A stretch of 36,069 nt of DNA from Candidatus Hermodarchaeota archaeon (GTDB taxonomy: Archaea > Asgardarchaeota > Lokiarchaeia > Sigyniarchaeales > SOKP01), in assembly GCA_048885525.1 (NCBI GenBank), contig JBHLLP010000033.1:1-36069 (forward strand). Reading direction: 5' to 3'. The notes below the pieces were generated by a model. That model did no database searches. It saw only the letters and a list, made by a program, of their open reading frames with translations, and was not told the DNA's origin. Each line of letters starts with the position of its first letter. Within the stretch, counting starts at the first letter, position 1. Made by a program: the position numbers and the translations under genes. Positions 30,887 to 35,614 of this stretch are shown here, in pieces.

Positions 30887-33790
30887 TCATAAGTCTATAT
30901 AGAGAGCAGGTTTGAAAGGTTTTGCTTTAATAGATCTTTGCTTAGGATCGAATTCAGAATTTATTATAATCATTGATTTTGTTCGCTTTTCTATATAAGA
31001 TTTATACTGTTCAAGCAACTTGATTTCATCTGTCTTTGGTAGCTTTTTTTCCCATATTCTGTCTTTTAATTGACTTTTTATAAAAGGGATAAGCTCTTTA
31101 TTTGTCATTAGCTCTTTTTCCTTTTTTAGTTCAGACATAATTTCATTAAAATTATCTTTTTTTAATAGAATTAGATCCATGATTTCGTATTTCCATTCGG
31201 GAGAAAGATATAAATAAATTTCATTAGATTTTTCCGATTTTACTATTTTCTTTATATTGAAGATATCTTCAATAACATTTGAGATATATTCAAATTCAAG
31301 TTCAAGGTTAGTATCAATATACTGTTTATTAAAGTCTCCCCAGACTTCCTTTGAGATAAATCCTTCATTTCCGGCAATTTCCCATAATTCTTCACATAAA
31401 TGAGGTAGTGTCAAGGAAAGAATCTTTAACCAATCCTTATAAATCAATTTAAATACAATAAGAAAGTCATTCGTGTTATCTACATCCCTTGAAAATTCCT
31501 GCATTTGATTAAAAACCTCATAAAATGCAGTTTGAAGATATCTTCTTATATTATATTCTTCTATTGCCTCCTTAGCTTCAATAAATTTTTTAATAATTTT
31601 AGAGAGCATCACTTGTGAATATTTAGAGTTAATATTTTCGAATATGGCTTCAATACCTTTTGATTGATTAATTTTATCAGAAACAAAGCTATAAAATTTG
31701 AATATATGATTTTTCACTGTCTCTATTTCTTTTTCTCGAAAATCCATATCGACACTAAAATCAGCACCATGAGATATGTAAAATCTAAATAAATCGCCAG
31801 AATAACTTTTTTGAATATCTGCCATAGGAATAAGATTTCCTTTTGATTTACCCATTTTCTGTCCCTCTACAATGACTGGTTCGATTAAACTAATTAACTT
31901 TGGCCAATGTTTCTCTGGGAAAATAGCAACATGATGGAATATATAAAAGCTCAAATGGTTTGAGATATGCATAATTGCAGTATGACGATGGTCGACTGGG
32001 TACCAATATTGGAACTCCTGTTGCATCTCTTTAAGGATTTTCTCTTTAATATTAATTTTTTTTGAGAGATTAGTTAAATCTCCTTTCCCTAAGAATACAA
32101 AATCAAAAAGTTCTGGGATTAACTGTTCTGGTTTAATTTCATATTCTCTAATTTTATGTGAAATGGTATAAAGTGCCATATAGATTGTTGAATCACTAAG
32201 AGATTCTATTATCCATTCTTTATTGAAAGGTAATTTCGTCCCTAACCCTCTTTTTCTAGCACAGGGTCTTTTTTCAAGCCAATTGAAAATATTTTCAAAA
32301 TTTAATCGATACTTGCTAGGTATAATTTTCATGTTATTAAGGCATTCGAAAGCATTTTTTTTCCAATCTCCTGCATTAAAATTAAGAAACCACTGATCCT
32401 TTAGAATAGAAACTATAACCTCTGCTCCACACTTACATCTAAGATTTTTAGTAGTTGGTATATACAATATATCTGCTTTATTCTCTTCTATTAAATCTTC
32501 TGAAACTTGTTTGGCTGCGTCACTAACTTTCATTCCTTGGTATTTGCCACATTTATCATTAAGAAATCCATTATAAAATTCATTTTTATAATTCTCACTC
32601 GTTGCTAAATCTAGTTTTTCATTATCTATTTGAGATTTAACATCAAATTTCTCACAGTATATTTTTGCAGGAAAATCCTTGAATCCTTTTAATTCTATAA
32701 TCTGAATAGGATAGATTAATTCGATTTCTCTTTTATCTAAATTAAATTCTTCAATTAATTCTGTATTTTTTTGTAAATCAATCAATGCAATATAATCATA
32801 AGGAGCATGAGCAGGAACTGAATAAACCACACCTGTAGCTGTAGCTGTCTCAACAAAATCTCCAGGTAAAATCGGAATTTCTTTAATTCCATATACATCT
32901 CTAGCTTTTTTACCAATGATTTTATTTCCTTTAAATTTATCTAATATTTTAATCTCTTTGTTTTGATTTCCTAACAACTGGGTTGCCTCATTAGAAATAA
33001 ACCATATTTCATCATTTATAATAGCCTTAATATAATCTCCATTTGGTTTTATCCAAATATTTGTAACTCCATATATTGTTTCTGGTCTTAAAGTAGAAGC
33101 TACAAGGAATCCATCTTCAAAAGGAAATTTTATACAAATAAATTCATTAATATTAAGATCTAGTTCATCTCCACTAGCAATATCGTCTTCTCCTACAGCA
33201 TTTTTATCTCTTGGGCAATATAAAATTGGATATTCTCCTTTTTCAATATAACCTTCTTCTTTTAAATGAAAGAATTGCCATTCAATGAATTTATTGTAAA
33301 TTTTGTCTCCTGTGGTAAACTCTCTCCGCCAATCCAAACTCATTCCTATTGACTTGAAATCCCATTTTATAGTGTTAGAAAAGTATCTCACAATATTCCA
33401 AGGATCTACAAAATTCTTTACAATTTCACTTATTTTTTTTTTATCTTTTGTATGTAATGATACGTATTCTTTCATCCTAGTTATCTGTATTTGATCCCTC
33501 CTTTCTATTGAAGAGGATATCGCTAAAACAGGAGTACCTGTAATGTGAAATGCCATAGGATATAGTACATTGTAGCCTCTGGCCCGATAATATCGCGCAA
33601 ATACATCTCCATTAACAAAGCTCCTCCCATGACCGATATGAGTAGGACCTGAAGCGTAAGGGTAAGGAGAAGTAATAAAAATTTTCTTTTTTGTCCTGAC
33701 TGGATTTGCTTCGAATATTTTTGCTTCTTCCCACTTATCTTGCCATTTCTTCTCAATTTCTTGTGGATTATACATTTTTTTTGAACTCAT
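30887..33790 (-). CDS. leuS: Leucine--tRNA ligase, archaeal/eukaryal type
   Basis: PYPYASGPTHIGH (HIGH), TLRPET and TGVVYSVPAHAPYD editing domain, ESLSDSTIY, KMGKS (KMSKS variant). Confidence 0.96.
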   Translation of the reverse strand: MSSKKMYNPQEIEKKWQDKWEEAKIFEANPVRTKKKIFITSPYPYASGPTHIGHGRSFVNGDVFARYYRARGYNVLYPMAFHITGTPVLAISSSIERRDQIQITRMKEYVSLHTKDKKKISEIVKNFVDPWNIVRYFSNTIKWDFKSIGMSLDWRREFTTGDKIYNKFIEWQFFHLKEEGYIEKGEYPILYCPRDKNAVGEDDIASGDELDLNINEFICIKFPFEDGFLVASTLRPETIYGVTNIWIKPNGDYIKAIINDEIWFISNEATQLLGNQNKEIKILDKFKGNKIIGKKARDVYGIKEIPILPGDFVETATATGVVYSVPAHAPYDYIALIDLQKNTELIEEFNLDKREIELIYPIQIIELKGFKDFPAKIYCEKFDVKSQIDNEKLDLATSENYKNEFYNGFLNDKCGKYQGMKVSDAAKQVSEDLIEENKADILYIPTTKNLRCKCGAEVIVSILKDQWFLNFNAGDWKKNAFECLNNMKIIPSKYRLNFENIFNWLEKRPCARKRGLGTKLPFNKEWIIESLSDSTIYMALYTISHKIREYEIKPEQLIPELFDFVFLGKGDLTNLSKKINIKEKILKEMQQEFQYWYPVDHRHTAIMHISNHLSFYIFHHVAIFPEKHWPKLISLIEPVIVEGQKMGKSKGNLIPMADIQKSYSGDLFRFYISHGADFSVDMDFREKEIETVKNHIFKFYSFVSDKINQSKGIEAIFENINSKYSQVMLSKIIKKFIEAKEAIEEYNIRRYLQTAFYEVFNQMQEFSRDVDNTNDFLIVFKLIYKDWLKILSLTLPHLCEELWEIAGNEGFISKEVWGDFNKQYIDTNLELEFEYISNVIEDIFNIKKIVKSEKSNEIYLYLSPEWKYEIMDLILLKKDNFNEIMSELKKEKELMTNKELIPFIKSQLKDRIWEKKLPKTDEIKLLEQYKSYIEKRTKSMIIINSEFDPKQRSIKAKPFKPALYIDL

Positions 33791-33877
33791 TATTAATTTT
33801 TCTAAACCTTACTTTTGTCTGAATTCTTATTTAAGCAATCAACCACCTATAATCTCTTTCAATTAAATTTCCAAGCC

Positions 33878-33936
33878 AAGCGAAAAAAATCCTTGTGAAA
33901 TGTAAAAGAAAAAGGTTATAAGGATTTGTTTCGCTT
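33878..33936 (-). promoter_or_regulatory. 17-bp hairpin in the leuS leader (candidate attenuator)
   Basis: aagcgaaaaaaatcctt (33878-33894) pairs with aaggatttgtttcgctt (33920-33936), 16 of 17 pairs. On the minus strand the loop and 3' arm contain U-tracts. Confidence 0.65.
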
Positions 33937-33994
33937 ACAATAATAATAAAACTGCGAGTAAATCAACTAAGGGTGTTTTTTCCTTTAGGTTCAT
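33935..33994 (-). CDS. Leu-rich leader peptide MNLKEKTPLVDLLAVLLLL upstream of leuS
   Basis: 19 codons, 8 Leu, ending TTA TTA TTA TTG TAA; stop codon overlaps the hairpin 5' arm; TATA-like sequence at ~34024-34045. Confidence 0.65.
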   Translation of the reverse strand: MNLKEKTPLVDLLAVLLLL

Positions 33995-34159
33995 CTTTAA
34001 TGCAGTGTTATTTGAATTCATTCTTATAAAAATATATATACTTTTATATTAAAATATTTCTAGGACATTGAATCTTTAATCTTTTAGTCTTTCTTTAACC
34101 TTTTAATCTTTCTGTTTATTATAAAGATTTAAATCAAAATAAAATAATTGTGAAATATT

Positions 34160-35614
34160 ATGATTGAATTCAATCCAAAATTTTTGAGTAAAGAGGAATT
34201 ACGTGCAATATCTGCCGGTATAAATGAAGAAGAATTACTTTTGTTTGATAAACATTGCATAAATGTCTATTATGAACAGAAAATACTGATTGAAGCAAAA
34301 GAACCAGGTTCTCCCTGGGTTGTTGTAAAAGATTTTAAAACAGGAGAACAATCGGAAATTCTTGATTGTACATCCCAGAATTGGACATTAGCGTTAGGAT
34401 TTGCTAATCCGGATGTTAATTTTGCTGTTGCAGAACAAATGAAAAGATTAACTCATATTAAATCTGACGCAGTATCTCCATCACGAGCTAAGTTTATAAA
34501 TAAATTATCTGATCTATCCCCCGGAAGATTAAAGGGAGGAAGAGTTCATATAAATAACGAAGGAGGCAGTTTAGCAATTGAAGCTGCTGTAAAACTTGCT
34601 TTAATAGCATCAAGAAATGGAGATCACTTCTTAACTTTTCGAGGAGGATATCATGGAAATACGTTGGCCATGTTAACAGCATCTCAACCATTTCACCCAA
34701 TGGTAAGGTTCAGGACCTTTGGAATAGACTTTTTTACTCGAATCCCTCAACCCTATTGTTATCGATGTTTATGGAAATATGAGAATGGCTTATATGGTAA
34801 GAAGGATCCTCAATGTAATATGGAGTGTTTTGATTTAGTAAAAGAATATTTAACAGGATTAACTACAAGAAAGCTTGCTGGAGTGATCTTGGAGCCTTGT
34901 CAAGCAGCAGGAGGTCATATTCCATTCCAACCAGAATTTTTGGATAAATTAAGGAGGATTTGCGAAGAAGAGAAGATATTTATAATATATGATGAATCTC
35001 AGACAGCTGTCTGGAGAACTGGTAAATATTTTACTTTAACAGAAAAATATGAGAAAGAAAATGGGCTAGATGTATCTCCTGATATGATGTGCTTCACTAA
35101 AGCATTAGGGGGAGGTTTCCCATTAGGTGCAATGGTTGCATCTACTAAAATTAGGAATCAATTTACAGCAGCAGAAGACCATACAACCTTTTGTAATACA
35201 CCAATTGGATGTACAGCGGGACTTGCTTCTTTTATGGTTATAGAAAAAGCAAAAATTGGAGAAAATTGTGAAGATAGAGGTAAACAGATAACTAAACGTT
35301 TAAGAGAACTCCAAGAAAAATATGAAGTTATTGGTGATATTCGAGGACCAGGTTTGTTCATAGGGATTGAGTTAGTTAAAGATCAGAAATCAAGAGAACC
35401 TTATACTGAACTTATGGAAAGCATGCTTCATGAAGGAGTAAGGCAGAATGTATTTTTTGGACCTAGTATGCCATATTTTACTGGAACTGGCAAATTTAAA
35501 ATGCGAAATCTGATAAAAATTAAGCCACCACTTAATATAACTGAACAAGATGCTGACTTCATTTGTGATAAATTTGAAAGTGTACTAAAGGCATCAATTA
35601 ACCATTTAAAGTAG
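34160..35614 (+). CDS. Class III PLP-dependent aminotransferase
   Basis: GGSLAIEAAVK, GGYHGNT, ILEPCQAAGG, DESQT, FTKALGGG (PLP lysine), DIRGPGLFIGIELV. Confidence 0.92.
   Translation: MIEFNPKFLSKEELRAISAGINEEELLLFDKHCINVYYEQKILIEAKEPGSPWVVVKDFKTGEQSEILDCTSQNWTLALGFANPDVNFAVAEQMKRLTHIKSDAVSPSRAKFINKLSDLSPGRLKGGRVHINNEGGSLAIEAAVKLALIASRNGDHFLTFRGGYHGNTLAMLTASQPFHPMVRFRTFGIDFFTRIPQPYCYRCLWKYENGLYGKKDPQCNMECFDLVKEYLTGLTTRKLAGVILEPCQAAGGHIPFQPEFLDKLRRICEEEKIFIIYDESQTAVWRTGKYFTLTEKYEKENGLDVSPDMMCFTKALGGGFPLGAMVASTKIRNQFTAAEDHTTFCNTPIGCTAGLASFMVIEKAKIGENCEDRGKQITKRLRELQEKYEVIGDIRGPGLFIGIELVKDQKSREPYTELMESMLHEGVRQNVFFGPSMPYFTGTGKFKMRNLIKIKPPLNITEQDADFICDKFESVLKASINHLK

Follow-up and report, generated by a model that had tools for sequence, protein, structure and literature searches.

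A Leucine-Rich Mini-ORF and Covarying RNA Helices Upstream of an Asgard Archaeal leuS: A Candidate Ribosome-Controlled mRNA Leader

Ribosome-mediated attenuation is a textbook bacterial mechanism, and the archaeal polymerase, unlike the bacterial one, terminates at U-tracts with a CPSF73-like factor. The locus described here raises the question of whether an archaeal gene for leucyl-tRNA synthetase (LeuRS) can be controlled by a ribosome that translates leucine codons ahead of it. The host is an uncultured Promethearchaeota archaeon (Lokiarchaeia-type Asgard) with a genome of 3.6 Mb in 87 contigs and a G+C content of 29%. The window, that is, the whole stretch of 36,069 nucleotides analyzed, contains a 370-nt divergent intergenic region that is flanked by a class-III aminotransferase gene and leuS, and whose minus strand holds the leader. 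It is likely that this region specifies a cis-acting leader of the leuS mRNA, in which a ribosome on a Leu-rich mini-ORF would report on charged tRNA-Leu and, through its position, pick one of two helices, called S1 and S2 below. The features needed at this point are the following.

34160-35614, plus strand: class-III aminotransferase gene
34045-34063, minus strand: putative BRE/TATA promoter of the leader transcript, with a TATA-like block at 34054-34045
33935-34021, minus strand: leader ORF (P0001) of 28 codons and a stop, with ATG at 34021 and stop TAA at 33937-33935
33938-33961, minus strand: putative sensor codons, two Leu (33961-33956), Ala, Val and four Leu (33949-33938), followed directly by the stop
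30887-33790, minus strand: leuS (P0002), archaeal-type LeuRS, TIGR00395 leuS_arch at 953 bits (cut-off 648)

The Leader ORF and Its Coding Signature

The original prediction described a Leu-rich uORF on the same strand as LeuRS and about 145 nt upstream of it, and such an ORF is indeed present, its stop lying 144 nt from the first leuS ATG (33790) and 159 nt from the start shared by relatives (ATG 33775, with a MY.P motif). The 19-codon version given there also exists, starting at an internal ATG (33994). However, this internal Met is missing from some relatives, and the conserved frame begins nine codons earlier, at ATG 34021, and comprises 28 codons, with Leu at positions 18, 21, 22, and 25-28. 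We have also considered whether LeuRS might extend in frame into the leader at its N-terminus; this was rejected, as such an extension is open only in some relatives and has no conserved start.

The promoter block shows the strongest conservation upstream of the leader ORF (31 aligned loci). Its TATA-like block is centered ca. 28 nt upstream of the leader ATG, and the interval contains no Shine-Dalgarno motif. From this distance and the missing motif, the mini-ORF is predicted to be leaderless or nearly so, with the start of the transcript probably at or very close to the ATG. A leaderless start is the usual way for archaeal ribosomes to find the first codon. The scan for sigma-70 promoters and hairpin terminators is uninformative for an archaeon. 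Between the leader promoter and the aminotransferase gene lie two tandem 19-nt copies (34073-34110) that are 89% alike.

The conservation of the ORF was analyzed in 34 distinct upstream regions, taken from leuS loci of the genus and of public species genomes that encode a LeuRS at least 64% identical; all are metagenome-assembled genomes of one family, and the counts given here are not counts of independent events. The frame is open in all 34 loci, with frames +1 and +2 closed in 34 and 33 of them, respectively. Its length ranges from 27 to 30 codons, the ATG is invariant, the stop varies among TAA, TGA, and TAG, and every indel is a multiple of three. The positional entropy amounts to 18.5, 21.3, and 26.9 at codon positions 1, 2, and 3, respectively, and the middle of the peptide varies freely. 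Aligned codons 21, 22, 25, 28, and 29 are Leu in 32-34 of the 34 loci, with exchanges among TTA, TTG, CTA, and CTN, and one Leu position is always a CTN codon. The synonymous changes that the original prediction had proposed to look for are thus present. Leu accounts for 58% of the last ten residues of the 34 tails and Ile, which is one mutation away from TTA, for none of them. In distant lineages the residues between the leucines differ (Gln-Ser, Gln-Ala, or Thr-Val in place of Ala-Val), and further Leu codons are present. The excess of third-position changes, the in-frame indels, and the open frame form a coding signature, from which we infer that the mini-ORF is translated. The comparison of frames and codons hence speaks for the cognate-codon leader peptide linked to leuS that had been predicted.

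A chance origin of the ORF and the hairpin in AT-rich DNA has to be considered here, because TTA runs are common in such DNA, a fair caveat that the original prediction itself had raised. The genome was scanned for small ORFs with an ATG start and 12-50 codons that are intergenic and have a long ORF on their strand no more than 300 nt downstream (n = 1459). The leuS leader has the most Leu-rich tail among them (7 Leu in the last 12 residues), and 6 Leu are reached by only four others. The 240-nt leader also folds better than 200 of 200 shuffled sequences (z = -3.2). The same scan returned an Ile-rich uORF (7 Ile in the last 12 codons), ca. 136 nt upstream of a porC-like gene encoding a 2-oxoacid:ferredoxin oxidoreductase gamma subunit (L112:793-1338, minus strand, contig 4). 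It was rejected as a cognate leader, since it is absent from 23 relatives and is attributed to chance. Such ORFs therefore do arise by chance in AT-rich DNA, and it is conservation that sets the leuS leader apart. Together with the covariation and the exclusive linkage to leuS across about 90 genomes described below, this conservation refutes the chance explanation, to which we assign a negligible probability.

Three Covarying Helices and Their Probable Competition

Besides the ORF, the leader contains three helices, one inside the ORF (P0) and two downstream of it (S1 and S2), with the following components.

33945-34012, minus strand: helix P0 (RNAalifold), pairing 34012-34002 (codons 4-7) with 33955-33945 (codons 23-26)
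33878-33936, minus strand: helix S1, with 5' arm 33936-33920, loop 33919-33895, and 3' arm 33894-33878
33904-33921, minus strand: U-rich tract and linker forming the S2 5' strand, with T5CT4 at 33913-33904; candidate archaeal termination signal
33832-33860, minus strand: S2 3' strand, consisting of the purine box and its continuation (33860-33846) and of GGTGG with a weaker copy of the S1 3' arm (33847-33832)

The 17-nt stem that the original prediction placed at the stop codon is found as an inverted repeat, 16 of whose 17 positions are complementary; its 5' arm begins inside the leader stop codon, and its 25-nt loop holds the T5CT4 tract. In the consensus, S1 consists of 13 pairs and one bulge, with 93% of cells paired and six pairs changed on both sides, so that the stem covariation proposed earlier as a check was observed. 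The U-tracts had been placed both in the loop and in the 3' arm. The one in the loop is conserved, a run of at least five T occurring at a fixed position (+21 relative to the stop) in most loci and no more than 50 nt downstream of the stop in 31 of the 34, but the T7 of the arm is specific to this genome, the relatives having TTTGTT instead.

The role assigned earlier to the hairpin itself does not stand. It had been supposed to control the exposure of the U-tract, but the tract is unpaired in the S1 loop, which measures 25-29 nt, and finds its pairing partner in the purine box downstream. Nor would this hairpin govern termination at the loop tract, as its 3' arm is not yet made when the tract is transcribed. 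S2 is formed by the U-rich loop of S1 and the linker, which pair with the purine box ca. 55 nt downstream. It comprises 14 pairs, with 84% of cells paired and seven pairs changed on both sides, including clear double changes such as U-A to G-C and U-A to A-U in single lineages. S2 was also recovered by an unbiased scan of all column pairs and is used in the minimum-energy fold of the window.

P0 has 92-93% of cells paired and three pairs changed on both sides. One of these three joins the wobble bases of codons 5 and 24, which are seen as G-U, A-U, U-A, U-G, and C-G, and AATAA in codons 4-5 is the partner of the Leu codon run TTATTATTA. P0 overlaps the most conserved codons, and part of the apparent coding conservation is therefore due to RNA structure. 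Overall, 89.7% of the cells of the 38 pairs can pair, compared to 41-51% when the partners are slid by one to three columns, and 16 of the 38 pairs are changed on both sides, compared to 4-10 with slid partners. In 500 shuffles, the observed levels of pairing and covariation were never attained.

These results bear on the alternative that the leader acts as RNA only, binding a factor such as LeuRS, tRNA-Leu, or a metabolite, with structure and AT-rich composition producing the open frame incidentally. The three covarying helices do explain much of the sequence conservation, the ORF interior included, and the conservation of GGTGG and of the A/T-rich linker, which is only partly explained, could also point in this direction. 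However, structure would not account for a frame that is open in all 34 loci with the other frames closed, for indels restricted to threes in spite of a highly variable middle part that is located in a loop, or for an invariant ATG at TATA distance. In addition, a search of 33600-34300 at E ≤ 10 returned no T-box (RF00230) and no other Rfam family match, the best hits being unrelated families far below their gathering scores. Together with the tail amino acids of the related leaders discussed below, these points make an RNA-only leader improbable.

S1 and S2 cross each other. In the full leader at equilibrium, the modeling favors S2, with a mean probability of 0.63 compared to 0.13 for S1. S1 reaches a modeled probability of 0.79 when its 3' arm has been transcribed but the purine box has not, provided that the 5' arm is uncovered. 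In this genus, the two helices share just one or two bases, and a pseudoknot containing both would be possible. The situation differs in other lineages and in the sister leaders, where the S2 3' strand from GGTGG onward pairs with the top or all of the S1 5' arm and where, according to these predicted folds, S1 and S2 are true competitors. A general helix between the S1 5' arm and the distal copy of the 3' arm was considered and rejected, since on average it is just modestly more stable than shuffles (-7.1 versus -4.2 kcal/mol) and is strong in few lineages only; the alignment is poor downstream of the purine box.

Neither S1 nor S2 ends in a conserved U-run, and no G+C-rich hairpin followed by a U-run was found on the leuS strand. 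A conserved A/T-rich linker, AAATTTAATT (33861-33870, minus strand), lies between S1 and the purine box, and no helix accounts for it. It could be a second TATA box or promoter, a further weak U-tract, or the site of a pseudoknot loop contact. GGTGG was rejected as the Shine-Dalgarno site of leuS, as it is 75-85 nt away from the ATG and thus too distant; the motif and the linker are both conserved, and only partly explained.

Linkage to leuS and Related Leaders

To define the spread of the element, a covariance model was built from the Leu codons through the purine box. It gives one strong match in this genome (130 bits); the next one (E = 0.5, contig 22) is without a uORF and was rejected as a second copy. 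In a sample of 151 genomes of the order, 90 are matched by the model, all of these belonging to a single family (89 of 131 genomes there), and no match is found in 19 genomes of the order's three other families. The best 29 matches were inspected, and all 29 lie directly upstream of leuS and carry a Leu-rich uORF. The element is also kept before LeuRS genes that are just 58% and 33% identical to the present leuS, and five members of the genus that are without the archaeal-type leuS are also without the element. Among leuS loci of other archaea, no Leu-tailed uORF was found in about 45, and the model gave no match in 18. Judged by conservation, covariation, and linkage to leuS across about 90 genomes, the leader and its hairpin are real and far from chance.

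The same observations can be confronted with the possibility that the ORF is an independent small-protein gene that has its own U-tract terminator and neighbors leuS by synteny only, the latter having a separate promoter at 33870-33861. A U-tract ca. 20 nt past the stop would be an ordinary archaeal gene end (PMC7515710), the linker is TATA-like, and the sister peptides have hydrophobic tails. However, S2 covaries across the supposed terminator and promoter, which places both on one functional RNA, and the peptide is conserved only at the RNA helices or the Leu codons. Furthermore, the element follows leuS down to 33% identity and is absent where the archaeal-type leuS is absent, while the tail, which includes an Asp, is not long enough to cross a membrane. 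We consider a separate small-protein gene very unlikely.

The genome encodes two LeuRS enzymes, the archaeal-type one behind the leader and a bacterial-type one on another contig.

L113:1581-4217 (contig 14, 79080-81718, running off the contig end), plus strand: bacterial-type LeuRS, TIGR00396 at 947 bits

No Leu-rich leader is present upstream of the bacterial-type gene in this genome. The bacterial-type LeuRS is matched in every genome of the order that was searched and the archaeal-type leuS is accessory, and on this distribution the leader is predicted to govern the second, dispensable LeuRS. One of the two LeuRS genes of these organisms would then be conditionally expressed.

In other genomes, the secondary matches of the model share the scaffold of the leuS leader: their mini-ORF begins in the same way, its stop abuts S1, and a U-rich loop, a purine box, and GGTGG are present. 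Equivalent leaders at other genes, whose search had been suggested on the basis of the first locus, are thus found with Val and Ile/Val/Leu codons, and a leader with Trp codons precedes trpB2.

L175:332-452, plus strand: Ile/Val/Leu sister leader, gene at L175:512-1963; ten similar ones in L176-L178, L180, L181, L183-L185, L188, and L189
L190:3005-3112, minus strand: Val-rich sister leader, genes at 1701-2942, 894-1700, and 1-912; also in L197, L199, L201, and L218
L111:2428-2502 (contig 14), minus strand: Trp-rich leader ORF, ca. 164 nt upstream of trpB2 (L111:860-2263, minus strand)

The last ten residues of the Ile/Val/Leu leaders (11 loci) are 45% Ile, 20% Val, and 17% Leu. The gene that follows encodes a 480-residue FrhB/FdhB-like protein with a C-terminal TrmB domain, and in L175, the locus examined, a MeaB GTPase gene comes next. 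The Val-rich leaders, with up to nine Val codons, occur in five genomes before the gene of a 413-residue acyl-CoA dehydrogenase, followed by those of EtfB and EtfA. This acyl-CoA dehydrogenase has an N-terminal extension, and its best family match is below the cut-off; its tandem paralogue of 382 residues has no leader. From the family matches, the genes behind both types of leaders are presumed to be catabolic. The best reason to think that the codons, and not the peptide, are read is that the amino acid of the tail follows the downstream gene, which also argues against the RNA-only alternative.

The Trp-rich leader of the present genome has four Trp among its last eight codons, and the TrpB-like enzyme downstream matches NF009057 with 618 bits. 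A 16-codon core that ends in three or four Trp codons is found in all 17 genus loci examined, ca. 130-180 nt before trpB2, and uORFs that end in Trp-x-Trp precede trpB2 in other families of the order. The Trp leader is followed by a T6 tract and conserved hairpins, in a scaffold that differs from that of the leuS leader.

Five further model matches (L179, L187, L191, L192, and L193) have uORF tails that are non-hydrophobic or short and Val-ending. Downstream of their uORFs come a strong AAGGAGGTGA site and a short conserved coding stretch, and no ORF of 100 codons is found within ca. 1.4-2.8 kb on the same strand (none at all in two of them). On contig 7 (L114), a 332-residue ORF (52680-53678, plus strand) is preceded, at a distance of 93 nt, by a 47-codon uORF, five of whose last 14 residues are Cys. 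The start of the longer ORF resembles cysteine synthase, and the uORF could encode a small zinc-ribbon protein or be a Cys leader.

Proposed Mechanism and Comparison with Known Systems

In the mechanism that we propose, the ribosome would gauge the supply of charged tRNA-Leu by translating the 28-codon Leu-rich mini-ORF, and its position would decide which of the competing folds arises behind the RNA polymerase. S1 would leave the U-rich tract open in its loop, and S2 would bury the tract, together with the top of the S1 5' arm, by pairing with the purine box. The conserved codons and crossing helices make us fairly confident of this sensor part, in which translation of the mini-ORF would report tRNA-Leu charging and the ribosome position would select between S1 and S2.

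As the output, we consider premature termination of transcription most likely, at the U-rich tract or immediately downstream of it and with aCPSF1/FttA, rather than masking of the leuS start. In the models, the start region of leuS is unpaired with a probability of 0.57-0.62 whether the leader is free of ribosomes or carries one at the stop or on the Leu codons, and masking was rejected since the accessibility is alike in all these states. As the start region is moreover A-rich and unconserved, a translational output is unlikely. The only candidate signal for termination is the U-rich tract, which extends from +21 to about +45 after the stop. Archaeal terminators consist of one or two consecutive U-tracts of at least five U, do not need a hairpin, function with aCPSF1/FttA, and mark gene ends (PMC7515710, PMC11616081), and a Lokiarchaeal aCPSF1 is active in transcription termination (PMC7515710). 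The tract has the sequence characteristics of the terminators in PMC7515710, a likeness that makes it a putative terminator. It need not be one, however, because the pairing in S2 already explains its conservation.

As to the direction of the response, we lean slightly, provided that the sensor is real, toward an inverse attenuator, in which leucine plenty would lead to read-through into leuS. With the stop codon in its A site, the ribosome would cover the S1 5' arm; waiting on the first Leu pair, it would not. Under plenty, the ribosome at the stop would cover this arm and remain near the polymerase, such that S1 would fail, S2 would hide the U-tract, and leuS would be read through. Under starvation, a ribosome stalled on the Leu codons would leave the S1 5' arm free and the polymerase uncoupled; S1 would then form first and the U-tract would be exposed, resulting in early termination. 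The distance from the stop to the end of the U-tract is 30 nt, about one ribosome front plus one polymerase rear, so a ribosome at the stop would stay close to a polymerase at the tract.

The opposite direction was assumed in the original prediction, namely that stalling on the Leu codons leads to read-through and a ribosome at the stop to termination, S1 then being an anti-terminator like the trpL helix 2:3. The geometry is indeed trpL-like, with 6-24 nt between the sensor codons and "region 2" and the latter abutted by the stop codon, and the gene under control encodes a second LeuRS in addition to the bacterial-type one, reminiscent of the backup synthetases of Bacillus, which are starvation-induced. 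To our knowledge, every characterized leader-peptide or T-box control of synthetase genes is on under starvation, which is the opposite of the inverse attenuator. Examples are pheST and the predicted Streptomyces leuS attenuators (PMC1262725). On the other hand, there is no terminator hairpin with a U-run for S1 to prevent, the U-tract stays unpaired in S1, and S1 is not yet possible during transcription of the tract. A stalled ribosome also means more naked RNA behind the polymerase, which should favor archaeal factor-dependent termination (PMC7515710, PMC11616081), and the sister leaders precede genes that look catabolic. On the modeled anatomy, the inverse direction fits at least as well as the one first predicted, and we regard the classical direction as possible but rather doubtful. 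It is the starvation induction of known synthetase genes and the backup-synthetase analogy that keep our preference for the inverse attenuator close to even.

The inverse logic would also suit the sister leaders if their genes are catabolic. Only tentatively do we extend it to a modular, codon-programmable family of archaeal leaders that would be switched on by amino-acid sufficiency, the ribosome picking between a hairpin that exposes the U-tract and a long-range helix that hides it from aCPSF1/FttA.

A full-text literature search gave no description of leader-peptide attenuation in archaea, and a review of archaeal transcription-translation coupling mentions neither attenuation nor leader peptides (PMC8116511). 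If this wider proposal is correct, the family would represent the first case of attenuation in archaea, and gene control through transcription-translation coupling would be directly evidenced in the prokaryotes most closely related to eukaryotes. A leader of this kind, conserved, covarying, and codon-specific in about 90 Asgard genomes, would show that attenuation also has a version evolved by the archaea themselves. A template of ca. 250 nt makes coupling, conditional termination at the U-tract, and the access of aCPSF1/FttA directly testable.

Among the known systems, the closest in arrangement are E. coli pheM-pheST and the leader-peptide attenuators predicted upstream of Streptomyces leuS and trpS (PMC1262725), which likewise place an ORF with cognate codons before a synthetase gene and use alternative helices. 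These bacterial systems rely on a terminator hairpin with a U-tail and on the bacterial RNA polymerase, whereas the present leader, from an Asgard host, has no such hairpin; its U-tract lies inside the loop of the first hairpin and pairs with a distant purine box, and its ORF is probably leaderless. With E. coli leuL-leuABCD and trpL-trpEDCBA it shares the runs of cognate codons just before the stop and a stop that abuts the first switching strand. The leuL and trpL leaders, however, serve biosynthetic operons and use four regions that pair as 1:2, 2:3, and 3:4, while the leuS leader pairs 2:3 (S1) against 2:4 (S2) and has in addition P0, by which the ORF folds back on itself.

If the inverse attenuator holds, there is also a likeness to E. 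coli tnaC-tnaAB, where a ribosome held at the leader stop codon blocks factor-dependent (Rho) termination; in both cases, sufficiency would keep a ribosome at the end of the leader and prevent factor-dependent termination there. TnaC, however, senses free tryptophan through the nascent peptide, involves Rho, and has no RNA switch, whereas the leuS leader is predicted to sense charged tRNA through codons. The T-box riboswitches of Firmicutes, those of leuS included, similarly report tRNA charging to a synthetase gene and have modular "specifier" codons. They bind uncharged tRNA directly and are untranslated, and the leuS leader matches no T-box model; we know of no T-box riboswitch in archaea.

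The candidate output resembles the U-tract terminators of aCPSF1/FttA in having consecutive U-tracts without a preceding hairpin. Those terminators mark gene ends, whereas the leuS tract lies in a 5' leader and is a strand of a covarying helix, and its use would thus be conditional. The features of an attenuator that are found here are the enrichment in cognate codons and the crossing, covarying helices, with the S1 5' arm starting in the stop codon. As far as these features can tell, the element is functionally like a leader-peptide attenuator but, since it has no terminator hairpin with a U-tail and no sequence relationship to the bacterial attenuators, it is placed outside their classical family.
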